Under the pieces are notes generated by a model, which had not been told where the DNA came from, ran no database searches, and worked only from the letters and a program-made list of their open reading frames with translations. A stretch of DNA of 64,000 nt from the NCBI GenBank assembly GCA_017601345.1, contig JAFNIT010000004.1, forward strand, positions 379 through 64,378. The letters are read 5' to 3'. How positions within the stretch are numbered: position 1 is the stretch's first letter; each line of letters begins with the position of its first letter. The DNA comes from Candidatus Brockarchaeota archaeon (GTDB lineage Archaea > Thermoproteota > EX4484-205 > JAAOZP01). Made by a program: the position numbers and the translations under genes. Below are positions 27,108-59,009 of the stretch, in pieces.

Positions 27108-27743
27108 TTGAATAGCATAGTTGAAATACCCTTAACCTCCTTCATTGTGTCTCTTTCAGGAGCCCTTGCCCCAGGCCCCCTGATGGTTACAACTGTTAGA
27201 GAATCCTCTTATATGAGGAGTTTCAGGCCAGGGCTACTCCTGTCTCTTGGACACGCGTTAGCAGAAGCTCCCGTCACTCTAATGCTAACTTACGGATTGC
27301 TTAATGTTAGCGAGGATTTTTATCCTATCATAAGCGTATTTGGCGGGATTTTCTTAGCCGCAATGGGCATTTTATCTTTTTTAAAAAAGGCGAGGAGCAT
27401 TGAAGCCCAGGAAGTTGCACGAGCTCACCGTCCAATGACTATGGTTGCATTGGGAGCGACAATATCTGTTTCAAACCCATACTGGATTACTTGGTGGCTT
27501 ACCGTAGGAGCAACCTATGTTTCTAAGTCGCTACCCTGGGGCGTGCTGGGGATAGTCTTATTCTACATCAGTCATCAAATGGGGGATTTTGCTGTTCTAG
27601 GATCCATCTCAAAGCTAATGGCTAGTGGTGCTAGAAGCATTGGGGAGAAAGGATTGAAAATTCTAATTATCGTGTGCAATATTGCAATAATAGCGATAGG
27701 CGTCTCATTCATGCTGGAAGGGGCTCGTGTTTTCAAGCCTTAA
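27108..27743 (+). CDS. LysE/RhtB-family amino-acid exporter
   Basis: 211 aa, 5-6 TM, N-terminal GALAPGPL motif. TTG start. Confidence 0.6.
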   Translation: MNSIVEIPLTSFIVSLSGALAPGPLMVTTVRESSYMRSFRPGLLLSLGHALAEAPVTLMLTYGLLNVSEDFYPIISVFGGIFLAAMGILSFLKKARSIEAQEVARAHRPMTMVALGATISVSNPYWITWWLTVGATYVSKSLPWGVLGIVLFYISHQMGDFAVLGSISKLMASGARSIGEKGLKILIIVCNIAIIAIGVSFMLEGARVFKP

Positions 27744-27787
27744 ATCACGAGCACTCTTGGAGGAGGCTGTTTTACGGCTGGAAGAGA

Positions 27788-30658
27788 ATGTTTTTCAACC
27801 TTCTACTAGTTTTTCTCCCTGTGGAGAATCTGTCCAGCGAAGAAGTTGTTTCAATGCTTGGAGAGCCCGTTGCCAAGCTTGTTTTAGAGAGGGGGCTCGT
27901 TCCATTAACCGAGCCGCAGCTTAAAGCAATACCTGAAATAATTGATGGGAATAACGTTCTGATAGTGGCTCCGACGGGGATAGGGAAGACTGAAGCAGCC
28001 CTGCTCCCGATTTTAAGCATAATGGTTAAAGAGAAGATTAATGTTAAAAAGGGAGTGTTTCTGCTCTACATAACTCCGCTTAGAGCTCTAAACAGAGACC
28101 TGGTGGAGAGAATAGGCTGGTGGGCTAGCAGGCTCGACCTGAAGCTCTCAGTAAGGCATGGGGATACTCCGTCTTCCGAGAGAAGAACCCAGTCGTTAAG
28201 TCCTCCTCACATCCTTATCACGACGCCGGAGACCTTTCAAATCCTGCTGATAGGCACTAGGCTCAGGAGCCATTTGAAAACTGTAAGATGGGTTGTGGTT
28301 GACGAGCTTCACGAACTGGCTTCAGACAAAAGGGGGAGCCAACTCTCTCTCGGCTTGGAGAGGCTTAAGAGGCTTATAGGAGGGAAAATACAAATCATAG
28401 GGCTCTCCGCCACCATAGGCGAGCCGGAGCAGCTTGCGCGCTTCCTCGTAGGGACAGATGGTGATTTTAAGGTTGTTGCAACGCCAGTGCCTAAGGACAT
28501 TGAAATAAGCCTCGTGCTCCCAGACGTTACTAATGAGGATTATTTGCTGGCGGAGAAGCTCTTGACAACTCCCGAGGTGTCGGCGAGGCTCAGAGTGATT
28601 AAGGAGGCGCTTGGTGGAAGCAATGCGTTACTGCTCTTCACAAACACTAGAGCCACGGCCGAGGTGCTCTCCAACAGGCTACTGGTAATGAACCTCCCCA
28701 CTCCTGTTTCCATCCACCATGGGTCTCTCGGCGTCGAGGCAAGGGTTAGGGCGGAGGAAGGGTTGAAGGAAGGAGAGTTAAGAGGAGTAGTATGCACATC
28801 CAGCCTCGAACTGGGCATAGACGTCGGTGCCATAGACTTCGTGATCCAATACGGCTCGCCGAGACAGGCTTCAAGACTCATTCAGAGAATCGGGAGGAGC
28901 GGGCATAGGATAGGATTAACCTCTCGAGGAATGATTTTATGCATGGATGAAGACGATGCTACTGAATCTATTATCTTGAGGAGAAGGGCTTTAAACAGCA
29001 TTTATGAACCAGTTTCGCCTCCAGAGGCCCCGTATGATATTCTTGCACACCAAATAGTAGGGATGCTCTTGGAAAAGAACAGGTGGGGTGTAGAAGAAAT
29101 ATTGAAGCTTATTCAAGGCAGCGCATCATACTCAAGAATTTCGATAGAAGAATTGGAGAGGGTTCTAGAGTTTCTTTCAACACAGTATCCTAGACTATTG
29201 TTTTTCGAAAAGTACAGTGACACGATTAGAGCTGGGAGAAGAGGAGAGCTGATAAGGTTCTTCTTCGAACATATTTCGAGCATACCTGAGGTTAAGCAGT
29301 ACCCTGTTTTCAACGAGGATGAAAACCTAGTCGTCGGAAACCTTGATGAAGAGTTCGTGGCGGAGAAAGGACTCCCCGGGACGAAATTCGTAATGGGGGG
29401 ATTAGTATGGTCGATAATTCAGGTTTTTAATGGAAAGGTCATAGTTAAGAAGGCGGAGGATTCTTTGGGAGCAGTACCCTTCTGGACTGGTGAAGAAATA
29501 CCTGTTACTTATGAAGCGGCGACAGAAGTAGGAGCTTTCAGGAGGATGATTGAAGAGGAGTATCGCAAGGGAAGCAGCTTGGAGGAAATAGTTGAAAAAG
29601 CGTCTGGAGAATACGGTGTTGAGAAGGATTTCGCTCTTAAGATCGTTAAGCCGATTGTAGAATGCCTTGAGAAAGGTATACTCATCGGTACTGATAGAAG
29701 AATCGTGTTTGAGAAATGGGGCGACTACACTATCATACACGCATGCTTGGGAGACCTTGGAAACAGGGCTTTATCCAAGATAGTTGGGTCAATAGTTCTT
29801 TCCGAAGTCGGTTTAACGGTCCCAGTGAGTAGAGACCCTTACCGGGTGATGGTTGAAAGAGTGGTTTCGCCGTCGATAATACTTGACAGGCTTAGGAAGC
29901 TTGATGAAAAAGAGGTTATGAGAATGCTTTTAGAAAACATTGAGAACGCGGGTCTTTTCAAGAGGAGGTTCCTACATGTTGCTAGGAGGATGGGGATAAT
30001 AGAGAAGGATGCTGATCTTACGTCGATAAGGCTAGAATCGCTCATAAGAAACAGTAAGGGAAGCATTGTTTACGATGAGGCCGTTAAGGAGTTACTATCT
30101 AAAGACTACGATGTAAAACCCCTGATGAATATGATTAGAGGAATCGTCTCAGGGGAGATTGAAACCATAATATATGAAAGCGGCGCTGAACCCTCACCCT
30201 TAGCTAAGCCTATTCTCAGACAGGGTGAGAGACATCTTGACATATATCCCCCCGAGAAGGCTGACAAGATAATCCTAATGTATGCTTCAGCAAGGCTCAG
30301 GAACACTCCTCTAGAACTCGTATGCAGCGAATGCGGATTTCCCTACGGCACTATTAAGCCTGAGGAGTATACTTCAGAGATGAGGTGTAGCAGATGCGGC
30401 GGCAAACTGGGTGCGAATCCTACTCCAGGCGTCAGGATTAGGCGTGGAAAATCCAAGAGGATAAAAATGCTCTTCAAAAAGATTTTTAGGACGGCGGAAT
30501 TGTTAGAGAAATATGGTAGGGATGCTGCTATAGCCCTGGCTGGAAGAGGATTAAGCCTGAAGACTGTTGAGAAGATATTGGTTAGGAGAAGCATGACTGG
30601 AGAGGATATCGTGAAAATGATTGTTGACGCTGAGAGACGGCGTTTTCAAAAAGCTTAG
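27788..30658 (+). CDS. lhr: Lhr-type large DEAD/DEAH-box helicase with C-terminal zinc ribbon
   Basis: APTGIGKTEAALLP, DELH, SAT, HHGSL, QRIGRSGH; long C-terminal extension with CSECG...CSRCGG. Start uncertain: the ORF opens at 27674 overlapping the LysE gene, with Met at 27788 or 27854. Confidence 0.8.
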   Translation: MFFNLLLVFLPVENLSSEEVVSMLGEPVAKLVLERGLVPLTEPQLKAIPEIIDGNNVLIVAPTGIGKTEAALLPILSIMVKEKINVKKGVFLLYITPLRALNRDLVERIGWWASRLDLKLSVRHGDTPSSERRTQSLSPPHILITTPETFQILLIGTRLRSHLKTVRWVVVDELHELASDKRGSQLSLGLERLKRLIGGKIQIIGLSATIGEPEQLARFLVGTDGDFKVVATPVPKDIEISLVLPDVTNEDYLLAEKLLTTPEVSARLRVIKEALGGSNALLLFTNTRATAEVLSNRLLVMNLPTPVSIHHGSLGVEARVRAEEGLKEGELRGVVCTSSLELGIDVGAIDFVIQYGSPRQASRLIQRIGRSGHRIGLTSRGMILCMDEDDATESIILRRRALNSIYEPVSPPEAPYDILAHQIVGMLLEKNRWGVEEILKLIQGSASYSRISIEELERVLEFLSTQYPRLLFFEKYSDTIRAGRRGELIRFFFEHISSIPEVKQYPVFNEDENLVVGNLDEEFVAEKGLPGTKFVMGGLVWSIIQVFNGKVIVKKAEDSLGAVPFWTGEEIPVTYEAATEVGAFRRMIEEEYRKGSSLEEIVEKASGEYGVEKDFALKIVKPIVECLEKGILIGTDRRIVFEKWGDYTIIHACLGDLGNRALSKIVGSIVLSEVGLTVPVSRDPYRVMVERVVSPSIILDRLRKLDEKEVMRMLLENIENAGLFKRRFLHVARRMGIIEKDADLTSIRLESLIRNSKGSIVYDEAVKELLSKDYDVKPLMNMIRGIVSGEIETIIYESGAEPSPLAKPILRQGERHLDIYPPEKADKIILMYASARLRNTPLELVCSECGFPYGTIKPEEYTSEMRCSRCGGKLGANPTPGVRIRRGKSKRIKMLFKKIFRTAELLEKYGRDAAIALAGRGLSLKTVEKILVRRSMTGEDIVKMIVDAERRRFQKA

Positions 30659-32165: not shown

Positions 32166-33947
32166 CTAGCTCTGTTCAACCTCGAGTACTCTCGACTCGT
32201 CTTGAACTTTTTGAACAACTATTATGTGCGCATCTTCGACAGGAGGGGGTGTTCCAGGTGTTATGCATAAGTATGCTACTCCAGGATTCTCTCTGACAAC
32301 TTCAGAGAGTATTTGGAAGAACCTTTTTCTCATGAGCGGGTCCATGTGTACATCTAGCTCATCGATCCCCCTGATGCTTGATTTGACTAGTGACTGAAGG
32401 GCCATTAAGAAGGACACTACTGTTGCACTCCTCTCGCCACCGCTCTGAGTGTAGACGTTGAACTCCGTTAGAGGACCTCCGCCGAAGCTTACGAATATCA
32501 CGAGGCCAGCGTTATCAACATCTTCCATATTCACTAAACGTAAGTCGCCGGTCCCACCCATGGTTTCCATATTCTTCTTAAAACCCTCGTTAATCTTTTC
32601 AACGACAGCCATCATCTTTCTCCTCCATATCTCTATTCTCTCTTTAAGCTCGTCTTCAGCAGCCATTCTGTTTTCAACGACAACTTTAACCTTCTGCTCA
32701 AGGTCACTATACACCTTGAGGTAATTTTTGTAAAACTCTTCCGCATTCTCTGAAACCGTGCCGAGAGAGGCTATTTGAATAATGCAGTCGTTAATCTTCT
32801 TCTCTATTACATCCGGGAGATCGACTTCTTTTGGCGGCTCACCTTCAAGCTGACCCTTAACCTCGTTAATCTTCGATTCAATAGATCTTTCCTTCTCCTG
32901 GAGGCGGCGACGTTCAGCCTCCAGCTCTCTCAACCTATACTTTATTACCTCAGCCCTAACATTTAACTTCACGTACTTCCTTATCAACTTGGTTATCTCC
33001 TCGTCGAGCTTACTATACTCGTCGATGAGCCCTTCAACATCAGCCTTGCCTTCCGAGGCCTTGAAGAAAATCCCCTTTAGCTTCATCCTAGCCTTATTAA
33101 GGCTGTTCCAAACTTTCTCTGCCTTCTCGACGTTTCTTGAAGCGATTTTATTGCCTCTGTCAATCCTCTCCTCAATTTTGGAGATCCTCTCCCGGATCCT
33201 CAGTTTCTCGCCGTTAAGTTGGTTGAAAACACTCCACTTAAGAAGCCTGTTCAACTCAGCATGGAGCATCTGCAGCTCTCTCCTCTTAACAAGCTTCTCG
33301 TATTCTGCTCTCCACATCTCAAGGGTCTCACGGGCTTCGTTCAAAAGAGCCTCCACAGCCTTCTCTTCGCTTACGATTTTGCTCAATCTCTCTCTTGAAG
33401 CCTTTATATTATCCCTTAAGCCCGAAAGCCCGATAGCGCCCTCCACTAGCTTAAGCTTCTCAGAAGGGTCTAGTGATGCGAACTCCTCAATCATGTATTG
33501 ATGCATCATTATGAGCATGTTTGAAGGGTCTATTCCGAAAAATGAAAGTATCTCGTCAACCTCCATCTTCGTAGCAGGATTGTAATTTATCTGGCTCCAA
33601 TATTCTCCGTCTCTCCTTAAATACCTAGTTATAACGAGCTCGTCGGATCTTACGAAGGACACTGGCCTCTTACCGTCAACCCCCGGAGAGTTATCGAATA
33701 TCAGTGTAACTCTAGCAATATCCTCGCCAATCCTTATTAAATCGCTCAGTTTCTCAGCCCTGCCACTGCGCGACTGTCCGAGGCCGACTGAAATACCCCA
33801 GAGAATCGAAGATTTTCCGGAGCCATTAGGGCCGAGAATAAGATTAAGCCCGGGGCGAATAGTAATCTTACTATAACGATAACTCATGAAGTTCTCTAAA
33901 ATCACCTCTTTCAGTCGAAGCCTTTTTTCTTGTTCTACTGTTTCCAC
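32166..33947 (-). CDS. Compact SMC-like ABC ATPase (593 aa, short coiled coil, no obvious hinge or zinc hook)
   Basis: ENFMSY...LILGPNGSGKSS (Walker A), MMHQYMIEEF (Q-loop), QSGGERSATVVSFLMALQ (signature), IDELDVHMDPLMRKRFF (Walker B/D-loop). About 270 aa of heptad-rich sequence lies between the head halves. Confidence 0.75.
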   Translation of the reverse strand: METVEQEKRLRLKEVILENFMSYRYSKITIRPGLNLILGPNGSGKSSILWGISVGLGQSRSGRAEKLSDLIRIGEDIARVTLIFDNSPGVDGKRPVSFVRSDELVITRYLRRDGEYWSQINYNPATKMEVDEILSFFGIDPSNMLIMMHQYMIEEFASLDPSEKLKLVEGAIGLSGLRDNIKASRERLSKIVSEEKAVEALLNEARETLEMWRAEYEKLVKRRELQMLHAELNRLLKWSVFNQLNGEKLRIRERISKIEERIDRGNKIASRNVEKAEKVWNSLNKARMKLKGIFFKASEGKADVEGLIDEYSKLDEEITKLIRKYVKLNVRAEVIKYRLRELEAERRRLQEKERSIESKINEVKGQLEGEPPKEVDLPDVIEKKINDCIIQIASLGTVSENAEEFYKNYLKVYSDLEQKVKVVVENRMAAEDELKERIEIWRRKMMAVVEKINEGFKKNMETMGGTGDLRLVNMEDVDNAGLVIFVSFGGGPLTEFNVYTQSGGERSATVVSFLMALQSLVKSSIRGIDELDVHMDPLMRKRFFQILSEVVRENPGVAYLCITPGTPPPVEDAHIIVVQKVQDESRVLEVEQS

Positions 33948-39929: not shown

Positions 39930-40222
39930 CCGCCTACACCCCTAAGGATTCTGCCGATTTCTTGGATAAGGCTTCTCTTATTCAAACCATTACAGAATAC
40001 GATTATCCTGCCCGATTTAGTGTTGCTCATCCTAGGGTAAGTTTTCTCCGATTCTATCATAGTTCTGAAACCAAGCTTGTCGCAAGCTTCTTTAATCCTG
40101 ATTAAACTTGGAGAGCTTGTTGCAAGCCCTTTTGCGATACGTCTTCCATTTTTACGCGAGAGTTTAGAATCAAAATATTGAGGATAAATTATTACGTAAC
40201 GATCTTTTGAAATCCTCTTCAT
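39926..40222 (-). CDS. srp19: Signal recognition particle protein SRP19
   Basis: IIYPQYFDSKLSRKNGRRI motif, 98 aa. Confidence 0.8.
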   Translation of the reverse strand: MKRISKDRYVIIYPQYFDSKLSRKNGRRIAKGLATSSPSLIRIKEACDKLGFRTMIESEKTYPRMSNTKSGRIIVFCNGLNKRSLIQEIGRILRGVGG

Positions 40223-40608
40223 CCCGTGTGGACCAGCCTAGCGTTAACAACCCCGTCTGCTCCCGGTTTTGAAGTTACTATCGCATTACCCACCTCTGTC
40301 TTTATCACGGCACCTTTAGTTATCACTTTCATTCTGCTAAACTCTCTGCTAGCAGGATTTTCAACAACGTCCAGAATCCTAGCCCTAACAACCCTGTCTT
40401 TTTCAACAGCAACATTAGCGTAAGCAGCTTTGAGGACTCTGATTTTTATACCTCCGCCCCTGACCCTGATCTTCTTAGTCTCATCCTCCTCGCCTATCTT
40501 CGTAAGCGTTGGCGGTCGCCCCATCTCATACTTACGCTTACTCCTGTAAGGATTCTTCTTACCACCAGTACTCTTCCTTTTGAACAGGTCTCCATGGTAT
40601 ACGGACAA
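40219..40608 (-). CDS. rps8e: 30S ribosomal protein S8e
   Basis: MSVYHGDLFKRKSTGGKK...RKYEMGRPP...KIRVRGGG. Confidence 0.9.
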   Translation of the reverse strand: MSVYHGDLFKRKSTGGKKNPYRSKRKYEMGRPPTLTKIGEEDETKKIRVRGGGIKIRVLKAAYANVAVEKDRVVRARILDVVENPASREFSRMKVITKGAVIKTEVGNAIVTSKPGADGVVNARLVHTG

Positions 40609-40786
40609 TTCCGTCTCAGTGTTTTGAAATAACCCTTAAAAACTTATTCCTACACGGTCTTATGAGTCTTATGGATCCAGGGAAAGGCCCTGGGGCATCT
40701 GTACGTAGAAGCACTGCGTATTTGAGGAGCATGCTGGAAAGAACGAAACCCCAGGGCTTGGAAAAGGTGGTGGAGATGGTTTAAAA

Positions 40787-43700
40787 TTGCATCTCACCAA
40801 GATTGAGATTAGGAATTTCAAATCTATAGGAGACCGGCAAGTAATAAACCTGAGCAAAGGGCTGACGGTGCTGACGGGTAGAAACGGCTCAGGCAAATGT
40901 GTTGCGCCATGGATGCCCGTGGCCCAGCCTTGGGGAGGTAAACCTATAGAATCTCTTTTCCATGACGCTTGTTCCGACGGCATAAGGATTAGTGAAGAGA
41001 CTTCTGAGTACGTGATTCCCTCTGGGAAAGTGATGCTATTAAGTTACCATGGACGCCTAAACAAGTGTTTAGAAACCAGCGTTAGTACTTTTTTCAGAAA
41101 GCCTTACGACGGCTGGTTATTAAAACTGGTAACGTTATCAGGTAGGATCGTCGAAGTTACTCCAGAGCATAGAATAGCGGTAGCTTTTAGCACCAGTTTT
41201 AAATGGGTTGAAGCATCGTCTCTAACGCCGGATAGTAAAATAATGGTTTTTGAAAACGGGAAGATTAGGATCGATGTCTTAGACAAGGTTGTTAGGAAGC
41301 GTTGGGCAGGCATGGTTTACGACCTCTACGTAAGAAACGTTGGGTCATACATTATTGGAGACGGAGTAATAGTTCATAATAGTAATCTGGTTGACGCAAT
41401 ACGTTTCGCATTAGGAGAGAATAGCCCTAAGCTACTCAGAACTGATAGGCTTTCCTCCCTAGTCAATGATAACGCTGGAAAAGATGCGGAAGCATATGTG
41501 AAAGTAACCATAGATAACAGTGATTCCGCCATTCCCGGCCAAGATAAGATCATTACGATAGCGAGAAGAATGGGACGTGATGGAGAGAGCACATACCATA
41601 TCAATGGCAGAAGAACCCCTAGGAATGTTATTGAAGACATAATCTCTACAGCCGGTCTTTCAGCCAGAGGGTACAATATAATTCTTCAAGGAGAAATATC
41701 AAGACTTGCAGATAAGAATCCGGTGGAGAGAAGAAGGGAGATCGAGCAGGCGCTTGGCCTAGCCCAGTACGATGAGAAAAAGATGGAGGCCCTTAACAAC
41801 CTGCAGCAAGCAGACAATAATCTTAGGGTTGCACAGGCCAGGCTCCAAGAAATAGATAGGAGGATGCTCCAGTTAGAAAGGGAGAGGAACCTTCTTTTGA
41901 GAAGACGGATGCTTGAGAAGGAGATTGAAAAAGTACAGCTTATAATAGACTCTCTCGAGTACTGGAGGCTCATAAATAAGCTTAATGATGTTTCTGAAAG
42001 AATTGAAGAGAACAATGTTTTAAAAAACAAGCTTGAAAACGAACTTTATGCAATACAATCTGAAAGGAAGAAACTTATGGAAAGAACTGAAGAGTTATTG
42101 AAGGCAGTTCCATCAATCGGTGATTCTGAGAAGATTAAGCTTGAGTATGAGCTTAAAGATTGTGAAAGACAGCTCTACGAATGTTTGAAAAATACAGAGG
42201 AGGAAAATCTAGAATTAAATACTATTAAAAAAGAACTAAGGAAAGTTAAGAAGAAGAAAAGCAAGATGCAGGGAAAGATTAAACGATTACTAAAAGTTGC
42301 AAGCAGGATGTCGACAAAATATTCTTCCCTCACTAATCTACTCACTGGGCTCTCAGAAGAGAAGAAGAGAATGCAAGAAATTGAGAGGAGAAGGATGGAA
42401 GAAGCTTATCAGATCAGAAGCCAATTAACTATGGTTGAGAAAGAGTTGGAGAAGACACTTGTAGAAGAAAAGAATGCTGAAAGGATGCTGAAAGATATTC
42501 TCATTCATTATAACGGTGTTAGGAGGAGAATGAGTAACTTGAACAGGATGAAAAACAGAGAGAGCGCTAGGAGGAGCAGATTAATAGAAAAACTAGACGA
42601 CCTTGAAAAATCACTGGCGGAGAGAAGAAAAACACTTAGCAATACTATTGAAATGCTTAAAGTCCTTACCGAAAGCATGGATGTGTTCAGAATATTCTTT
42701 GCAAAGGCATCTGGCGCTTTAAGCTACAGGGATAGGAAAGATAAGGGGAGAATCCTAGAGCTTATGAGAAGAATCTTAGAAGAGAAGGGTTTAAGAGTCT
42801 ATGGAATTTTAAGGGAAAACCTCTGGTTCCCTGAGGATGTTAAAAAGGCTGTTGAAAGCCTGGCCGGAGAGTGGATGGACTCCGTTCTAGTTGGGAATTC
42901 GCTAGATATGCTTGTGTTAACGAAACTGTTCAGCGGAGAAACCACTGGCATAAGAGTGTTAACGCCTGAAGGAGAAATCTCTAAAAAGGAAGTGCCCTCT
43001 AAGTTTAATGGACGGGGCACCCATCTAATGGATTTGCTTAAGTATCCTAAGGTTATTGAGAAACATGTTTTAAAAATATTCTGGAATAGTGTTTTGGCAA
43101 ACAGTGTTGAAGATGCTTTAGCTTTTGTGAAGAATGGTTTTAAAGCAGTAACTCGAGACGGGCAGGTTTTCACAAGCGAAGGCGCGTTAATACCGGATGA
43201 TAGTGATAAGGAATTTGAAAATATCCTGAAATTTATTAAAACCTTCACTGGGAAGGCTGGAGAATTGTCTAAGATGATTGAAACAGTAGAGATGCACATA
43301 AAACATTCTTTAAGCAGGAAGATGGTGGAGACAACAGAGTTCCGAAACAAGCTTGAAGGCGAGTTAAATGCCATCGACGCATATATGAGTAGGCTGGAGG
43401 AACAATTGAATATTCTAGCTAATGAATACTTGTCGACCTCTAGGAGACTTAACCAAGTTTTTAGAGAACGGAATACTGGCAAAAAGCGTTTGCTTGAAAA
43501 AGAGTTGCAAAGACTAAGATCTTCGATAACTTTGAAAGAGAAGGAGTTGAGGAACATCCGGAAGAAGATAGGCCTGCTTGAAGAGAAGATGGAGAAATTA
43601 GATAATGAAAAAATGCGAGTTAGAAGAAGCTTAATAGAGATTGAGAACATTGTTAATACACTGCGTAGGAGAATTGAGGAATATAGGAAAGTTGAGGGAG

Positions 43701-44683
43701 CATTAGCAAGTAGTATTTTTGCGATTAGGAATGAAATTAGAAGCTCCATAGTTTTAGCAAACGATCTTAGGAATAAAATAGAATTCTTAAAGTCGAAGAT
43801 AGGGGAGGATGCTGGAGTAGAATACGGGGAGAGAGGTGAGCTTGTTGAAGCAATACGGAGACTTGATGAAGAGGCTGAGAGATTAAATTCAGAGATTAAT
43901 AGGGTTAAAGACGTTGAGAGGAGGCTTCTAGTAGAGAAAGAAGTTAATGAAAGCAAGATAGAAGAGCTGAGAAACAGAATTCTGGGTCAACCATTACGGG
44001 TGCCGGAAGAAACTAGAGACTCTGCGGAGAGGTACTTAAGCATTCTTAAGAGCGAGCTTGAAAAAGTCCGAGAAGTAAACATGCTCGCTATTAAGCAGTA
44101 TGAACAGGAGATAGATTTCTATAGGAATGCCTTAGAAAGGATTAACGAGCTGGAGGAAGAGAGGAGAAGCATTCAAGAGTTTATGGAGGAAATTGAAAGA
44201 AAGAAAAGAGAGGCTTTTCTAGAGGGTTTGAGCAAAATAAACAGTTATTTCTCAACGTTTTTCAACAAGATGACCGGCGGAGAAGGCTGGCTTCAACCTG
44301 AGGATCCTGATAATCCTCTCGAAACAGGCTTGAACGTCTACGTTAAGTTCCCGGGAAAGGAGGCTAGAGTAATAAGTGGAGTAAGCGGGGGGGAGAAGTC
44401 AGTTGCAGCACTCTGCCTAATCTTTGCGATGCAGAAACTTTTTCCAGCAGCATTCTACATTTTCGACGAACCAGATGCGCATTTGGATTACGTCAACATC
44501 GATAAGATGACTGACCTCCTTAAGGAAGTCTCTAAGGAGAGTCAGATCATAGTAATATCACTCAGAGATGTCGTCGTCAGCAAGGCTGATAAGGTTATAG
44601 GAGTATACGTTAAGAAGGGGATGTCAAGGTTCATGGAGATGCCAGGCGAGAGGGCTCTGGAGGAGATAGCTGTTGCTGGATGA
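40787..44683 (+). CDS. smc: Chromosome segregation protein SMC (canonical), precursor carrying a mini-intein in the Walker A loop
   Basis: IEIRNFKS...LTGRNGSGK|C...HN|SNLVDAIRFALGE; long coiled coils; hinge region about aa 700-800; SGGEKSVAALCLIFAMQ; FYIFDEPDAHLD. TTG start. Confidence 0.9.
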   Translation: MHLTKIEIRNFKSIGDRQVINLSKGLTVLTGRNGSGKCVAPWMPVAQPWGGKPIESLFHDACSDGIRISEETSEYVIPSGKVMLLSYHGRLNKCLETSVSTFFRKPYDGWLLKLVTLSGRIVEVTPEHRIAVAFSTSFKWVEASSLTPDSKIMVFENGKIRIDVLDKVVRKRWAGMVYDLYVRNVGSYIIGDGVIVHNSNLVDAIRFALGENSPKLLRTDRLSSLVNDNAGKDAEAYVKVTIDNSDSAIPGQDKIITIARRMGRDGESTYHINGRRTPRNVIEDIISTAGLSARGYNIILQGEISRLADKNPVERRREIEQALGLAQYDEKKMEALNNLQQADNNLRVAQARLQEIDRRMLQLERERNLLLRRRMLEKEIEKVQLIIDSLEYWRLINKLNDVSERIEENNVLKNKLENELYAIQSERKKLMERTEELLKAVPSIGDSEKIKLEYELKDCERQLYECLKNTEEENLELNTIKKELRKVKKKKSKMQGKIKRLLKVASRMSTKYSSLTNLLTGLSEEKKRMQEIERRRMEEAYQIRSQLTMVEKELEKTLVEEKNAERMLKDILIHYNGVRRRMSNLNRMKNRESARRSRLIEKLDDLEKSLAERRKTLSNTIEMLKVLTESMDVFRIFFAKASGALSYRDRKDKGRILELMRRILEEKGLRVYGILRENLWFPEDVKKAVESLAGEWMDSVLVGNSLDMLVLTKLFSGETTGIRVLTPEGEISKKEVPSKFNGRGTHLMDLLKYPKVIEKHVLKIFWNSVLANSVEDALAFVKNGFKAVTRDGQVFTSEGALIPDDSDKEFENILKFIKTFTGKAGELSKMIETVEMHIKHSLSRKMVETTEFRNKLEGELNAIDAYMSRLEEQLNILANEYLSTSRRLNQVFRERNTGKKRLLEKELQRLRSSITLKEKELRNIRKKIGLLEEKMEKLDNEKMRVRRSLIEIENIVNTLRRRIEEYRKVEGALASSIFAIRNEIRSSIVLANDLRNKIEFLKSKIGEDAGVEYGERGELVEAIRRLDEEAERLNSEINRVKDVERRLLVEKEVNESKIEELRNRILGQPLRVPEETRDSAERYLSILKSELEKVREVNMLAIKQYEQEIDFYRNALERINELEEERRSIQEFMEEIERKKREAFLEGLSKINSYFSTFFNKMTGGEGWLQPEDPDNPLETGLNVYVKFPGKEARVISGVSGGEKSVAALCLIFAMQKLFPAAFYIFDEPDAHLDYVNIDKMTDLLKEVSKESQIIVISLRDVVVSKADKVIGVYVKKGMSRFMEMPGERALEEIAVAG
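40898..41380 (+). mobile_element. Class-1 mini-intein (161 aa, no homing endonuclease domain) within smc
   Basis: Starts with Cys right after GSGK, has the block B TxxH motif (VTPEH), and ends ...GDGVIVHN followed by Ser(+1). Removal restores GRNGSGKSN. Confidence 0.8.
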
Positions 44684-45341
44684 AGCTCAGGAAGCATCTG
44701 AATTAATATTCGACTTAATAAGGCTAAGGAGAGTTAATCCGTGGGATGTTAAAATATCCGGTGTCTTGAAGCAGTTATCCAAAGAGCTTCGCGGAAAAGG
44801 CTATATGCAGTTCACCCTTTCAGGACTATTGTTATTAGCATCCTCCATAATCTACTTGAGGAAGACAGAGACCCTTCTAAACATCGAGCCAAAAGGAGAT
44901 GAAGATGCTGGGGAAATCAAGGATGTTGCAGACTTTCCTCTAGAAGCACTTGATAAAATAAGTCCTTCAAACATCCCCCTCAGACCTTCGCAACCCGTTA
45001 TAGATCTTGAACAACTGGTTAAAGCACTCCTCCGCATATTGGAGAAAGAATATTCGAAGAAACCTGTTGAAGAAGAGCCTTTGCCACCAATAGTCCCCCA
45101 GCAAGACGAGTTTATGAGAAACATTGAGAAAATGGTTGAGGAGTTTAAGAAAAGCCTTTTCGAACAGGTAGTTAGCCAAGGCAGGGTTCCTTTGAGAAGC
45201 CTACTTGAAGGAAAACAGCCCCTTGAAGCAGCTAGAACGTTCATATTAATACTCTTCGTACTGTCTGAGCCCGGTTTCGACATTGTTTTCGAAGGTGACG
45301 AGTGCTACATAGTGGCGGAGGATGGTTTTGAAGGAATCTGA
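44673..45341 (+). CDS. scpA: Segregation and condensation protein A (kleisin)
   Basis: 222 aa, overlaps the smc stop. N-terminal LIRLRRVNPWDVKISGVLKQ and C-terminal AARTFILILFVLSEPGFDI fit ScpA. TTG start. Confidence 0.75.
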   Translation: MLDEAQEASELIFDLIRLRRVNPWDVKISGVLKQLSKELRGKGYMQFTLSGLLLLASSIIYLRKTETLLNIEPKGDEDAGEIKDVADFPLEALDKISPSNIPLRPSQPVIDLEQLVKALLRILEKEYSKKPVEEEPLPPIVPQQDEFMRNIEKMVEEFKKSLFEQVVSQGRVPLRSLLEGKQPLEAARTFILILFVLSEPGFDIVFEGDECYIVAEDGFEGI

Positions 45342-45882
45342 ATATAAAAAGAGGATTGAGGCAGCACTGTTCGCGTCAGGCAGACCATTAAGCATTTTAC
45401 AACTCAAGTCTGCAGCAGGAGCTAGAAAGGTTGAGAAGGTTGAGAACGCTTTAGGAGAGTTGATTGAAGAATACAGGTCGAGAGATACAAGTCTTGAAAT
45501 AGTCGAGATAGGTCATGAAAACTACATGCTTAGAGTAAAGCCCGAGTACGTCAACTTCATTAAAAAGCTAGGGGTAAAGCCTATGATCAGCAGAGCTGGT
45601 TTGAAAACTCTGACTCTGATAGGTTTAAAACAGCCGATTGCGCAGTCTAAGATTGTCGCCCTACGGGGGACGCATGCTTATAAACAGATCCGGAAGTTGA
45701 TTGAAATGGGGCTTGTTGAAGCAAGCAGAAGTGGGAGAAGCAGATTACTAAGTCTCACTCCAACCGGTTTAAGCATTTTCGGTGCATGTAGCGATGAGGA
45801 GCTTAAACAAGCCTTAAGAAGCCGCCTACAACCAATGTCCTCCCATGAACAGAATAGGGAGAATACAGGACAGGCTAAGTAG
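45322..45882 (+). CDS. scpB: Segregation and condensation protein B (kite)
   Basis: RIEAALFASGRPLSILQL and a second WH ...SRAGLKTLTLIGLKQPIAQSKI. Confidence 0.8.
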   Translation: MVLKESEYKKRIEAALFASGRPLSILQLKSAAGARKVEKVENALGELIEEYRSRDTSLEIVEIGHENYMLRVKPEYVNFIKKLGVKPMISRAGLKTLTLIGLKQPIAQSKIVALRGTHAYKQIRKLIEMGLVEASRSGRSRLLSLTPTGLSIFGACSDEELKQALRSRLQPMSSHEQNRENTGQAK

Positions 45883-53914: not shown

Positions 53915-54279
53915 GACTGTTTGAAGAGCTATCAAATTCCGTAAGCACTTCCAGAATATTTTGGAAACTGCTTAAGAATGGGGAGATGAGTATTTCTCAG
54001 ATAATAAGGCAGACTGGTTTAAACCATAAGATAGTGAGAAAAAGCTTAGAAGAAATGATTGCTAAAGGATTTGTAAGAGGAAAATCCTTTGGAAGATTGA
54101 AGATTTATTTTTTGAACAGAGATAATTATAGTATCAGAGTATTGCTCAGTCTTTTAAGTATGCCTCCTCCGGATTTCTCCTCTAAGGATAATCGAGTTGT
54201 AGAGTTCTCTCAAACGGGTATCGCTCAGTCTGTTGAGGACCCTGGTTCTGAAGTTATCGTCTTCAGAAAGGAATCTTAG
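53887..54279 (+). CDS. Small wHTH (ArsR-like) protein
   Basis: IFWKLLKNGEMSISQIIRQTGLNHKIVRKSLEEMIAKGFV. The 3' part overlaps the convergent rfcL end by about 125 nt, so the true stop and extent are uncertain. Confidence 0.4.
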   Translation: MSERRDSLIRLFEELSNSVSTSRIFWKLLKNGEMSISQIIRQTGLNHKIVRKSLEEMIAKGFVRGKSFGRLKIYFLNRDNYSIRVLLSLLSMPPPDFSSKDNRVVEFSQTGIAQSVEDPGSEVIVFRKES

Positions 54280-55389
54280 GAAGGGTACGATTTCCCTCCT
54301 AAAAACAGACTTACCTACATGCAACTCTTTCAAGAAGAAAGATTCTAGCTCCCTGAGGCTTTTCAAATGTTGAATCCTCTTAAACCTCTCCTTAATTCTA
54401 CTCGGAAAGGCAAAGTTGACCTTGTTCTTCTGGGGTATCGCGAGGAAAGCATTGGACAATTTGTGATAGAAAATCGGCAGAAGCCTCCAGGCAGAGTTTT
54501 TAGATATTTGTTTGAGAAGCATGTCTGCCTCAGCCACGTATCTTAATGCTGGGAAGAGCCATTGTTTTGGTGAAAGATGAAGAATGTTTTCGAAAACCCA
54601 TTCAAGCAGGTCCTCAGGTTTTTCCTCTGAAGAGGATAATGATAAGGAGGCCTTTTCCAAGGTTGATGCATAAGTTGCTCCTCTCAATATTTCGAATATG
54701 TTTTTCTCAACATTCCTGTAAGACAATATTTTCTCTGCATCCTCGATGTTAACATCCTCTTGCGCAGAGTATAGAAGCTCCAAATCCTCTATAGCAGCTC
54801 TCATATCTCCTTCTGAATGCTCTGCAATTATCAATAGCACTTCCTGCCTGCATTTAACGCCCTCTGCCTTACATATGTCCCTGAGCCTCTTAACTATGGT
54901 CTGTGGTCTTATTCGATGTAAAGGAATCATGTAAGCCTTGTCCCTTATCTTATAGAGGTGGGGCGCCCACGGGTCGTTAGCAGCCATTACAATGGGTACT
55001 TTCGAGGATTCTATCAGCTCCAGTAGAAAGTTAATTGCATTGGATTCCTCGGCTGAGAGGCCGTCAATCTCATCGAAGAATATTAATACTTTACTGCTGA
55101 AAAGGCTCCTGTTGAGAGCTGCTGGTTTAATAACGTTCTCTAGAAAATCTACCCTTCTTGTCTCGCTTGCATTAGTCTCTATAAGCCTGTAGTTAAACTT
55201 TGAAGCGACTACTTCAACAAGAACAGTCTTCCCCACGCCTGGCGGACCGTGGAGTAATGCTGCTTTTCCACGCTCATCCCATTTTTCAAGCCAATCGATA
55301 AAGTCTTTCTTAGCAGCATCGTTTCCAACTACTTCCTCCAGCGTCTTAGGCTTATGCTTCTCAACCCAACTGAGTCGGGGCACGCTCAT
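54154..55389 (-). CDS. rfcL: Replication factor C large subunit
   Basis: WVEKHKPKTLEEVVGN, HGPPGVGKT, FDEIDG. Confidence 0.85.
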   Translation of the reverse strand: MSVPRLSWVEKHKPKTLEEVVGNDAAKKDFIDWLEKWDERGKAALLHGPPGVGKTVLVEVVASKFNYRLIETNASETRRVDFLENVIKPAALNRSLFSSKVLIFFDEIDGLSAEESNAINFLLELIESSKVPIVMAANDPWAPHLYKIRDKAYMIPLHRIRPQTIVKRLRDICKAEGVKCRQEVLLIIAEHSEGDMRAAIEDLELLYSAQEDVNIEDAEKILSYRNVEKNIFEILRGATYASTLEKASLSLSSSEEKPEDLLEWVFENILHLSPKQWLFPALRYVAEADMLLKQISKNSAWRLLPIFYHKLSNAFLAIPQKNKVNFAFPSRIKERFKRIQHLKSLRELESFFLKELHVGKSVFRREIVPFLRFLSEDDNFRTRVLNRLSDTRLRELYNSIILRGEIRRRHT

Positions 55390-56348
55390 TTCTGAACATC
55401 TGCGGCTAAAGCAGCTAATACAGTACTTATCTGTATCTCGGCATCAGCACCCATTGCCACTCGAAAGTTAGCCTCTCCAAGAGCATTAACAACCTGGAGC
55501 CTCTTTCTCTCATCAATCTCTATAGACATGAGTTCAGAATTCATCTCCCTCAGTATGTCGTTTGCTGACAAGCCGTCGTCGTACAAGAGTTTTGCAAGCC
55601 TCTTTCTCGCCGATGTAAAGTCGCCCTTTAATGCTTCGCTTATCATCTCCCCGACCTCTCTTGGATGGAGAACACCCACTACCTGTTTTACGCTCTCCCC
55701 GGTGATTTTCTTCAACCCCCCGGCGGCGGACTGCGCTATGTTTATCGCCTTCCTCATATCACCCCTAGCGGCCTTAACTATCTCGTCTATGGCCTCCTCA
55801 GTCCAAGATACTCCTTCCTTCTCTAATACCCTTATAACGCCCTCCCTTACGTGTGTTGGACTAAGAGGAGGGAACCTGAACACCGCGCATCTTGATTGAA
55901 TGGGCTCAATTATCCCCCATTGATAATTTGCAAGAAGTATGAATCTAGTGACTGAAGCATATCTCTCCATTATTCTCCTTAGGGCCTGTTGAGCATCCTG
56001 CGTCATGTTATCACTCTCGTCTAATATGAGTATCTTGAAGGGGATTTCCGTAGAGGGCCTGCTCCTAGCGAAGTCCTTCACCACCTCCCTTATGGTATTT
56101 ATACCCCTCTCGTCTGAAGCATTGAGCTCCATGAACCTGCCTGCAGTAGAGCCTTGGTAAAGGTCGTTTACAAGAGCTAAAGCAGCAGTAGTCTTCCCAG
56201 TACCCGGGGGGCCGACGAAAAGCATGTTTGGAACATTTCCAGACTTTACAAATGCCTTAAGCCTGGTTACAATCTCTTCTCGGTCTATTATCTCGTCAAG
56301 TGTTTTCGGCCTATACTTCTCGACCCATAGAAGGTCTGATATGCTCAT
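55386..56348 (-). CDS. rfcS: Replication factor C small subunit (no intein)
   Basis: WVEKYRPKTLDEI, GPPGTGKTT, ILDESDNM, SRC motif (QSRCAVFRF). Confidence 0.9.
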   Translation of the reverse strand: MSISDLLWVEKYRPKTLDEIIDREEIVTRLKAFVKSGNVPNMLFVGPPGTGKTTAALALVNDLYQGSTAGRFMELNASDERGINTIREVVKDFARSRPSTEIPFKILILDESDNMTQDAQQALRRIMERYASVTRFILLANYQWGIIEPIQSRCAVFRFPPLSPTHVREGVIRVLEKEGVSWTEEAIDEIVKAARGDMRKAINIAQSAAGGLKKITGESVKQVVGVLHPREVGEMISEALKGDFTSARKRLAKLLYDDGLSANDILREMNSELMSIEIDERKRLQVVNALGEANFRVAMGADAEIQISTVLAALAADVQK

Positions 56349-56407: not shown

Positions 56408-56971
56408 TTGGATAGTATAACTAAGGAGTTGCTCAACTGGATTGTCAGGAGAGAGTTGAAAAGAATAAGGTTGAGATATGAGCTTGAAGAAACCGTGGTA
56501 ATCCCACAGGTTGATTCGAAAAGCATCCGGCTACCCGGGCTGGGCGAGGTGGTTATGGAGAAGGGGAAGGCGATAAGGGTTTACAGGGGAGTGGCGAACC
56601 AGCTGGCGAATTCTGGCTGGGCTAAAATGAGCGAGGAGCATTTAACCGTGAAAGATGTCGCTTCCATGAGATGGCTTGAATCTTCTGAAGAAGGGCTCAT
56701 CAAGCTCCCAGATTTCTTTTACCTTAAGGCTGTAAAGATGACTGGGAATAAGGGTGCGAAGAACATTGAGATCCAGAACGATCTGCAAGAAATAATAGAC
56801 ATAAGGCTTAGAAAACTGGTTAAATTAGTGTTTTTAAAGGAGGCTCCTACGAGTGTTCTAGAGCGGCTACAGCCAGAGGAGTTGCTTCTGTACAACCTTC
56901 TTAAGGAAGCTTTAAACATTTGGCAGAGGGAGTTGATTTATTCGGATGGAGGACAGCAGAGTCAGATCTAA
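56408..56971 (+). CDS. GINS subunit, Gins23-type (B-A domain order)
   Basis: 187 aa. A beta-rich part (LPGLGEVVMEKGKAIRVYRGVANQLANSGWA) precedes the helical part (LIKLPDFFYLK...IDIRLRKLVKLV). Sits immediately upstream of and overlapping mcm, as in Sulfolobus. TTG start. Confidence 0.5.
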   Translation: MDSITKELLNWIVRRELKRIRLRYELEETVVIPQVDSKSIRLPGLGEVVMEKGKAIRVYRGVANQLANSGWAKMSEEHLTVKDVASMRWLESSEEGLIKLPDFFYLKAVKMTGNKGAKNIEIQNDLQEIIDIRLRKLVKLVFLKEAPTSVLERLQPEELLLYNLLKEALNIWQRELIYSDGGQQSQI

Positions 56972-59009
56972 GACCCCGATTCAAAGCCTGTTCCTAGATT
57001 TCCTACGAAATTTCAGAGACGAGAATAATGAGAGGAAATACTATGATCAGATAGCATCCCTCCCCTCTCTCGGAGCATCATCCATCGTCATAGATTTCCA
57101 AGACATGCTTTCCTATAACCGGGAGATCGTCGAGGAGATCGTCGAGAACCCTTCTGTCTTAGAAGAACTTGGGAGCATCGCCCTATCCATCTTGAGCAGT
57201 CTAGACAGGGACTATGCTTCAAAAATACAACGGGTTGCTGTAAGGATAAGAGGCCTTGGAAAGAAGATATCGATTAGAGACATAAAATCCAGCCTATTGG
57301 GGAAGCTAGTATGTTTCGAAGGAGTTGTGGTAAGGGCCTCTGAAATAAAAAGCATACTTGTTAAGGGAGTCTTCCAATGCAAGACTTGCGGCAGCATATA
57401 CGAAGAGCCTCAGACAGGACTCGTTTTAAAACCGCCGCGTTGCGACGTTTGTGGAACAAGCAAACTCTCGAATTTCGAATTACTGCAGGACCGTTCCGAG
57501 TTCATGGATTACCAAGAGATAAGGGTTCAGGAGAAGCCTGAGGACCTGCCGGCGGGTGTGATGCCACACAGTATAAATCTTAGGCTTACTGGAGACTTGA
57601 CTGATCGAGTCAGGCCTGGGGACAGGGTTCAGATAACTGGAGTAGTAACCGCCACCCCCGACAGGCATCCTCTGAAGAATCTTCAATATACGACTTTCTC
57701 GCTCAGCATCGAGGTGAACTATATTGAAGCCTTAATGCAGGAGCTTGGAGAAGTCACGTTAACGCCCGAAGAAGAGAAGAAGATTATTGAAATGAGCAGG
57801 GACCCATGGATATACCAGAAGCTGATAAAGTCTATAGCACCATCCATATACGGTCTCGAAGAGATTAAGGAAGCAATCCTCTTACAGATGGTTGGGGGAG
57901 TGAGGAGAACCTATCCTGACGGCGTGACCGTCAGGGGAGACATAAACCTGCTTCTAATAGGCGACCCGGGCACAGCTAAAAGCCAGCTTCTCAAATATGT
58001 TCAAAGGATAGCCCCAAGGGGGCTTTACACTTCTGGAAGAGGGGTTACGGCAGCTGGCTTAACAGCCGCGGTTGTCAGAGACAAAACCGGAAGCTTCACG
58101 TTAGAGGCTGGCGCAGTAGTCCTTGCTGACAAGGGGATAGCTGCAATAGACGAGTTTGAGAAAATGAAGGCTGAGGACAGGGTTGCGATACACGAGGCGA
58201 TGGAGCAACAGACAGTAAGCGTAGCGAAAGGAGGGATCGTGGCAACACTAAACGCTAGGACAGCCATACTCGCCGCAGCGAACCCGGTGTACGGCAGGTA
58301 TGACGACAGCCTTAATTTCAGCGAGAATGTTGACCTGCCCCCCACACTGCTCTCCAGGTTCGACCTGTATTTCATAATAAAGGATAGGCCTGATAAAGAG
58401 GCGGATGCTAAGCTTTCAGACCATATCTTACAGCTACACATGGAGGCCTACAACTACAGTGATGAAATCATCCCCCCGGATCTCCTAAGGAAGTACCTAG
58501 CGTATTGCAAGAGAATAGTGCCTAGGCTCACGCCTGAGGCAACTGAGAGGATTAAGAACTTCTTCCTCCAGCTTAGAGGCAGCAGTCAAGAGGCAAATGC
58601 TCCAATACCCATAACACCGAGACATTTAGAATCTCTGATAAGGCTGAGCGTAGCCAGAGCTAGGGTAATGCTGAGAGACGAGGTTACTGTTGAGGATGCG
58701 GAAGTAGCTATAAGACTCATGGATTACAGCCTGCGAACAGCTGGCTTAGATGTTTCAACTGGTAAGGTCGACATCGACATTTTAATGACAGGAAAGTCCC
58801 GGAGCAAATGGGAGAAGGTGCGGATAATATTGAAGGAAATAGAGAACCTTGAAGCTGAAACCGGTAAAGCCCTTCTGAGCGAGCTGAGGAAAAGATGCGA
58901 GGAGAAGAAGATTGAACCAGACGAGTTTTACAAGCTCATAGAGCAGATGAGAGAGCAGGGAGTGATAATGTTCCCCGATGAGGAGACCGTTAGAAGAATA
59001 AGGCGTTGA
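56946..59009 (+). CDS. mcm: Minichromosome maintenance helicase MCM (no intein)
   Basis: Zn motif CKTCG...CDVCG, GDPGTAKSQ (Walker A), IDEFEKM (Walker B), SRFDL arginine finger. Confidence 0.95.
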   Translation: MEDSRVRSKTPIQSLFLDFLRNFRDENNERKYYDQIASLPSLGASSIVIDFQDMLSYNREIVEEIVENPSVLEELGSIALSILSSLDRDYASKIQRVAVRIRGLGKKISIRDIKSSLLGKLVCFEGVVVRASEIKSILVKGVFQCKTCGSIYEEPQTGLVLKPPRCDVCGTSKLSNFELLQDRSEFMDYQEIRVQEKPEDLPAGVMPHSINLRLTGDLTDRVRPGDRVQITGVVTATPDRHPLKNLQYTTFSLSIEVNYIEALMQELGEVTLTPEEEKKIIEMSRDPWIYQKLIKSIAPSIYGLEEIKEAILLQMVGGVRRTYPDGVTVRGDINLLLIGDPGTAKSQLLKYVQRIAPRGLYTSGRGVTAAGLTAAVVRDKTGSFTLEAGAVVLADKGIAAIDEFEKMKAEDRVAIHEAMEQQTVSVAKGGIVATLNARTAILAAANPVYGRYDDSLNFSENVDLPPTLLSRFDLYFIIKDRPDKEADAKLSDHILQLHMEAYNYSDEIIPPDLLRKYLAYCKRIVPRLTPEATERIKNFFLQLRGSSQEANAPIPITPRHLESLIRLSVARARVMLRDEVTVEDAEVAIRLMDYSLRTAGLDVSTGKVDIDILMTGKSRSKWEKVRIILKEIENLEAETGKALLSELRKRCEEKKIEPDEFYKLIEQMREQGVIMFPDEETVRRIRR

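Follow-up and report, generated by a model that had tools for sequence, protein, structure and literature searches.

A class-1 mini-intein very probably interrupts the ATP-binding loop of Smc in Brockarchaeota

The smc locus and its insert

The window considered here is a stretch of 64,000 nucleotides (contig JAFNIT010000004.1 of assembly GCA_017601345.1, positions 379 to 64,378) from the 77%-complete metagenome-assembled genome (MAG) of an uncultured hot-spring Brockarchaeota archaeon. It carries an smc gene in which the Walker A motif (P-loop) of the encoded ATPase is split by an insert of 161 residues, which is very probably a genuine class-1 mini-intein that would remove itself from the precursor protein and has been kept by vertical descent. 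The coordinates of the gene, the insert, and the neighboring genes are collected in Table 1.

Read from the bases, the junctions are GRNGSGK-CVAPWMP...EVTPEHR...VYDLYV...GDGVIVHN-SNLVDAIRFALGE (hyphens mark the splice junctions; LT precedes GRNGSGK). The insert is located between Lys37 and the Ser of the Smc Walker A motif, after which the C-extein continues with SNLVDA. A first-pass annotation of the window had placed a 161-residue insert at this site, starting with Cys, carrying a TxxH block B, and ending in HN followed by Ser; its limits prove exact to the base and in frame, and the codons bear out each of these residues. It had also proposed that excision rebuilds the P-loop, and joining of the flanks in silico indeed yields GRNGSGKSNLVDAIRFALGE, a whole Walker A motif. 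In the alignment with intein-free SMCs of Nitrososphaerales-type archaea, which the first-pass annotation had suggested as a means of confirming the insertion point, the gap falls exactly between GPNGSGK and SN.

At position -6 from the splice junction (Arg32 of Smc, 40880..40882), an arginine is found throughout the window's genus, all genomes of which read GRNGSGK (loci L010-L024). The same position is a proline in all other SMCs examined, whether intein-bearing or intein-free.

Table 1. Genes and sequence features of the window that are discussed in the text
Feature	Position	Strand	Remarks
smc	40787..44683	+	TTG start; precursor of 1298 aa, 1137 aa minus the intein
N-terminal part of Walker A (G31-R-N-G-S-G-K37)	40877..40897	+	End of the N-extein; aligns with GPNGSGK of intein-free SMCs
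Lys37, codon aaa	40895-40897	+	Last N-extein residue
Predicted class-1 mini-intein, Cys1-Asn161	40898..41380	+	161 aa; 483 nt = 161 codons, in frame
Block A nucleophile Cys1, codon 38 (tgt)	40898..40900	+	Invariant in 21/21 class inteins
Block B TxxH, Thr88-Pro-Glu-His91 (act cca gag cat)	41159..41170	+	T88 and H91 invariant
Block F core Val140-Tyr141-Asp142 (gtt tac gac)	41315..41323	+	Invariant in class; D142 also in wider alignment
Block G His160 (cat, 41375-41377) and Asn161 (aat, 41378-41380), codons 197-198	41375..41380	+	Invariant
Ser+1 (agt)	41381..41383	+	C-extein nucleophile and Walker A Ser (GxxxxGKS); invariant
Probable scpA (kleisin)	44673..45341	+	222 aa; overlaps the smc end, between smc and scpB
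scpB	45322..45882	+	PF04079 SMC_ScpB, E 1.8e-34; TIGR00281, 111.4 bits (cut-off 89.2)
Second SMC-family ATPase	32166..33947	-	593 aa; SMC_N head halves, short coiled coil, without hinge
Ribosomal protein S8e gene	40219..40608	-	Divergent from smc
Lhr	27674..30658		Present, no intein domain
RFC-L	54154..55389		Present, no intein domain
RFC-S	55386..56348		Present, no intein domain
MCM	56946..59009		Present, no intein domain
Hel308	59011..61224		Present, no intein domain

Evidence that the insert is an intein

The excised insert was compared with the intein profiles, as the first-pass annotation had proposed, and exceeds the curated cut-offs of both the Pfam family Intein_splicing (PF14890, 37.9 bits, cut-off 35.8, E 1.9e-9) and the NCBIfam model of the intein N-terminal region (TIGR01445, 29.7 bits, cut-off 24.5). 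A phmmer search against the sequences in the PDB retrieved the inteins Pho RadA (4e2u, E 1.9e-7), Mja KlbA (2jmz, E 3.3e-6), and TvoVMA (4o1s, E 3.5e-5). AlphaFold2, run on a 27-row alignment, predicts a single, nearly all-beta domain with a predicted local distance difference test (pLDDT) value of 96.2 and a predicted template modeling score (pTM) of 0.89, and the model has no low-confidence or additional segment. When this model was searched against the PDB with Foldseek, ranks 1-19 were all inteins and the first Hedgehog autoprocessing domain appeared at rank 20. The best match was TvoVMA (template modeling (TM) score 0.90, E 7.6e-13), followed by PhoCDC21-1, Pho RadA, and PabCDC21-1 (0.88 each).

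No endonuclease domain was found in the insert, and Intein_splicing is the sole Pfam family that it matches. As a single domain of 161 residues leaves no room for an endonuclease and no endonuclease family is matched, the insert is assigned to the mini-inteins, and because Cys1, T88-x-x-H91, D142, H160-N161, and Ser+1 are all present, it is assigned to class 1. The insert thereby combines a predicted HINT fold shared with solved mini-inteins, a block A nucleophile, the TxxH motif, the block F and G residues, and a Ser at the +1 position with the existence of colinear, intein-free orthologues, in agreement with the mini-intein reading of the first-pass annotation.

A lineage-specific insertion unrelated to Hint domains, or an artefact of assembly, would be another way to explain the insert. 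Nothing was found in favor of either. The profile, sequence, and fold matches all lead to inteins and rule out a non-Hint insertion, and the same arrangement recurs across genomes that were assembled independently, in several studies and from several springs, so the probability left to this explanation is next to nil.

Important to note here are four points that weigh against the mini-intein assignment. The model of the intein C-terminal region (TIGR01443, 24 positions) reaches 12.2 bits, which lies under its cut-off of 15.6; PF14890 scores 30.9 bits on the full-length protein and passes its cut-off of 35.8 for the excised insert only; the host genome is a MAG and 77% complete; and the spliced product is a prediction.

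In the whole assembly, PF14890 and TIGR01445 match the SMC insert alone and no further intein was found. The statement of the first-pass annotation that Lhr, RFC-L, RFC-S, MCM, and Hel308 in the window are free of inteins agrees with the profile search.

The host gene and its neighborhood

The Smc translation matches the profiles SMC_N (E 2.2e-53), SMC_hinge (E 1.4e-7), and TIGR02169 (SMC_prok_A, E 8.6e-138). The TIGR02169 score of this intein-interrupted and divergent Smc (460.9 bits) lies under the equivalog cut-off of 729.4. The Walker B motif (FDEPDAHLD) and the signature motif (SGGEKS) are unbroken in the translation, and the start position of the gene is common to homologues. With its head-coiled coil-hinge architecture, Walker A and B motifs, signature motif, and scpA and scpB partners, the product has the sequence features of a canonical prokaryotic Smc, i.e., the ATPase of an Smc-ScpAB condensin.

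The smc-scpA-scpB operon is complete. The product of the gene that sits between smc and scpB gave no Pfam or NCBIfam match, even at E 10, and a phmmer search against PDB sequences linked it to 6ivh ('Segregation and condensation protein A', E 1.4e-5); it is probably a divergent kleisin that is overlooked by the current profile libraries. On the other side, smc is separated from the ribosomal protein S8e gene by a spacer of 178 nt (40609..40786), in which both promoters are presumably located.

This smc is the only full-length SMC gene in the whole assembly. The second SMC-family ATPase in the window has an unbroken P-loop (GPNGSGKSS), and its top partial match is the head of TIGR02169 (E 1.2e-55).

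Distribution and descent in the class

In GTDB, the class of the window's genome comprises a single order, which has 26 species genomes. Of these, 21 have the SMC intein, including 15 of the 16 in the window's genus; the one member of the genus with no intein match is a bin of 600 kb and 70% completeness. All genomes of another three genera have the intein too, and two genera lack it and have an intact P-loop. The empty site reads cleanly as GPNG(S/T)GKSN in three genomes of the class (loci L032-L034 in G009, G008, and G004). In one relative (G017) the intein had seemed broken; the apparent break is a run of N, and there is no frameshift.

All inteins of the class are minis with lengths of 156-163 aa. 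Although their overall identity drops to about 26%, C1, T88, H91, V140-Y141-D142, G156, H160, N161, and Ser+1 are invariant across all 21, along with a few structural residues. In two unsaturated comparisons with the window's gene, the ratio of nonsynonymous (dN) to synonymous (dS) substitution rates was 0.27 and 0.17 for the intein, 0.08 and 0.04 for the Smc head, and 0.14 and 0.16 for the coiled coil, and throughout the genus the dN of the intein parallels that of the coiled coil. Within the genus, the intein tree and the extein tree agree. The GC content of the intein (0.437) was compared with that of equal-sized stretches of the host gene (0.40 +/- 0.03), and the GC content at third codon positions (GC3) also falls inside the host spread. 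A recent horizontal arrival of the intein was considered and dropped because GC and GC3 are host-like and the two trees coincide at the genus level. Taken together, the conservation, the dN/dS ratios, the matching trees, and the base composition indicate that the SMC intein is an old, immobile, vertically inherited, and functional element that is maintained by purifying selection.

In the extein tree, the intein-free genera (g4 and g6) are sister to an intein-bearing genus (g5) of the same family with a support of 100/99, which requires at least one precise loss or one additional gain. The empty sites in the g4 and g6 genomes suggest a precise loss of the intein or its replacement by an intein-free allele. 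The deep part of the intein tree has long branches and no resolved order between the genera and fits one gain and one loss as well as several gains.

Across 301 sampled genomes of the phylum, the SMC intein turned up in the window's class alone. Six weak hits in this sample were rejected as SMC inteins because their frames of 759-1125 aa are too short (intein-bearing SMCs of the class have about 1290-1360 aa), and they are provisionally taken as inteins in other host proteins.

Proposed splicing pathway

The four-step pathway of class-1 inteins is established chemistry, and its application to this locus would run as follows. The smc gene would be translated to a precursor of 1298 aa with a split ATP-binding loop. 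An N-S acyl shift at Lys37-Cys1 (step 1) would be followed by trans-esterification onto the hydroxyl of Ser+1 (step 2) and by cyclization of Asn161 (step 3), which would be aided by His160 and residues of blocks B and F, after which an O-N shift (step 4) would create the Lys-Ser peptide bond. The outcome would be a restored GRNGSGKS and an ordinary Smc of 1137 aa that could partner with the ScpA and ScpB encoded directly downstream. The intein itself is no longer mobile; it has lost its endonuclease, descends with smc, and is fixed in most of the class. Splicing of the precursor is deduced from the invariance of the catalytic residues and from purifying selection, the latter of which keeps the intein intact because a splicing-defective copy would inactivate Smc.

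The insert separates the two Walker A residues, Lys and Ser, with which all P-loop NTPases contact the phosphates and Mg2+; the precursor should accordingly be unable to bind ATP, and the unspliced Smc would be dead as an ATPase. This also bears on the possibility that the HINT domain has lost its splicing activity, so that the insert would stay in place and Smc would be inactive or would work with a permanently split P-loop. What speaks for this is that splicing of the SMC intein is itself a prediction, together with the second SMC-like ATPase of the genome, which could assume some of the functions. Yet a domain of 161 residues between the Walker A Lys and Ser is incompatible with nucleotide binding as known from P-loop NTPases, and all seven catalytic positions have stayed invariant in 21 genomes despite the divergence of the intein. 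The Smc head is moreover under very strong purifying selection (dN/dS 0.02-0.08), and Smc retains an intact Walker B motif, signature motif, and hinge as well as its partners ScpA and ScpB. A splicing-dead insert is therefore regarded as highly improbable, and the reading of a splicing-competent mini-intein is retained.

The first-pass annotation had concluded that chromosome condensation in this organism depends on protein splicing. For the Smc-ScpAB complex this would hold, as no second full-length smc was found in the assembly. Extended to condensation as a whole, the conclusion is weakened by the 77% completeness of the genome and by the second SMC-like ATPase.

The same splice site outside the class

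Outside the class, the insertion was traced with a narrow pattern of the C-junction peptide ([IVF][VL]HNSN[LIV][IVL]DA), whose matches were confirmed by tblastn over 49 intein-extein residues. The C-junction of an SMC intein was found in this way in at least 78 species genomes. Among the matches listed are, on the archaeal side, many DPANN lineages (Aenigmatarchaeota, Woesearchaeota, Micrarchaeota, Nanoarchaeota, Iainarchaeota, Nanohaloarchaea) as well as Methanosarcinales, and on the bacterial side eight records (Roseiflexaceae, Myxococcales, Chlorobiota, Desulfurobacteriaceae, Rubrivirga, Omnitrophota, an Actinomycetes MAG, and a Pseudomonadota MAG). Wherever the N-junction lies inside the fetched DNA, it invariably reads GxNGxGK-C. 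SMC is therefore no new intein host, and the insertion is widespread in archaea and present in some bacteria.

The SMC inteins of DPANN archaea and bacteria share the site with those of the Brockarchaeota (GxNGxGK-C ... VHN-SN(L/I/V)(I/L/V)DA), and the identity between the Brockarchaeota and DPANN inteins is about 20-26%. Unlike the Brockarchaeota minis, most copies outside the class are large, with a frame that is open for >520 aa upstream of the C-junction or closed at 367-500 aa. The bacterial inteins have lengths of 193-500 aa, and most DPANN copies are open for >520 aa upstream. Three related protein clusters (P0048-P0050) carry LAGLIDADG_3 (PF14528), with the extra residues placed precisely between blocks B and F.

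In two of these LAGLIDADG-bearing metagenomic clusters (P0049 and P0050), which align with the Aenigmatarchaeota sequences P0044 and P0046, the intein begins with a residue other than Cys. P0049 reads GSGK-TIRGD (Thr1) and P0050 reads GSGK-SCRGD (Ser1); Thr is very unusual as the first residue of an intein.

The insert adds a well-bounded new case to the rule that inteins favor the P-loops of DNA-handling ATPases, and it points to a lineage, the Brockarchaeota class, in which the sole canonical Smc would acquire its ATP site only through protein splicing. The 21 species with a mini-intein and the three with a clean empty site form a natural comparison set, to which the DPANN and bacterial relatives add larger inteins at the same site, with the endonuclease retained in those checked. 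Such a set is suited to study the intein life cycle from invasion and fixation to endonuclease loss and precise deletion, and also to address the question of P-loop inteins as conditional switches. Protein engineers, too, could be interested in a compact intein from thermophiles whose junction residues are Lys(-1) and Ser(+1).

Comparison with known systems

The first-pass annotation did not recall SMC as a standard intein host, which turned out to be wrong, both because of the junctions found outside the class and because archaeal SMC is named as an intein host in a survey that also describes P-loops as the favored intein site (Novikova et al. 2016, Mol Biol Evol 33:783, PMC4760082). The main text of that survey lists SMC without a site or species, so its entry does not imply the same allele as in the Brockarchaeota. 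In the literature searched, no paper uses the phrase 'SMC intein' or comparable ones such as 'Rad50 intein', and neither an experimental study of an SMC intein nor a paper that connects Brockarchaeota with inteins was found. To our knowledge, Brockarchaeota were not yet known in 2015.

By sequence, the closest solved relative is the Pho RadA mini-intein (4e2u, 4e2t, 2lqm; Foldseek TM 0.81-0.88), which likewise interrupts a P-loop. Its host is different, as the RadA recombinase belongs to another ATPase family, and the identity in the structural alignment is about 18-19%. The Pho RadA intein is a temperature-gated switch whose splicing is gated by the native exteins (Topilina et al. 2015, PMC4513877; Lennon et al. 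2018, PMC5790916). This raises the question of whether the SMC intein might be a conditional switch as well, in which temperature-, redox-, or DNA-gated splicing turns on the Smc ATPase and, with it, condensin loading. Such a refinement of the mini-intein reading draws on the shared P-loop position and extein gating of its RadA relative, on the persistence of an endonuclease-less intein across most of the class under purifying selection, and on the hot-spring habitat of the hosts. Long retention and purifying selection are, however, equally expected of a trapped mini-intein whose host gene is important, as nothing short of a precise deletion takes it out safely, and two genera of the class manage without the intein. 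Cys26, the sole extra cysteine that could serve as a redox trap, is conserved in part of the genus only. Conditional splicing has been demonstrated for the RadA intein, whereas the SMC intein is known here from its sequence and predicted fold. A switch is accordingly considered unlikely, and the more specific idea that the intein was co-opted as a post-translational condensin gate, with Smc kept ATPase-dead for as long as splicing is not released by temperature, redox state, or DNA, is a shade less likely still. If it were true, it would be the first case of protein splicing controlling chromosome organization and would parallel the Pyrococcus RadA P-loop intein.

A disulfide linking Cys1 to another intein cysteine was considered as a redox trap and discarded; only one half of the genus shares Cys26, and conservation of Cys57 is lower still.

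The preferred reading, a vertically inherited mini-intein that would splice itself out of Smc, is matched most closely in structure by TvoVMA (4o1s) and by PhoCDC21-1 and PabCDC21-1 (6rpq and 6rpp), all of which have HINT folds (TM 0.90 and 0.88, E 7.6e-13 to 4.5e-10). Their hosts differ from SMC, being the A subunit of the V-ATPase and MCM/Cdc21, respectively, and the sequence identity amounts to 19-23%. At about 170 residues, TvoVMA and PabCDC21-1 count as minis; the PhoCDC21-1 chain is longer (249 residues).

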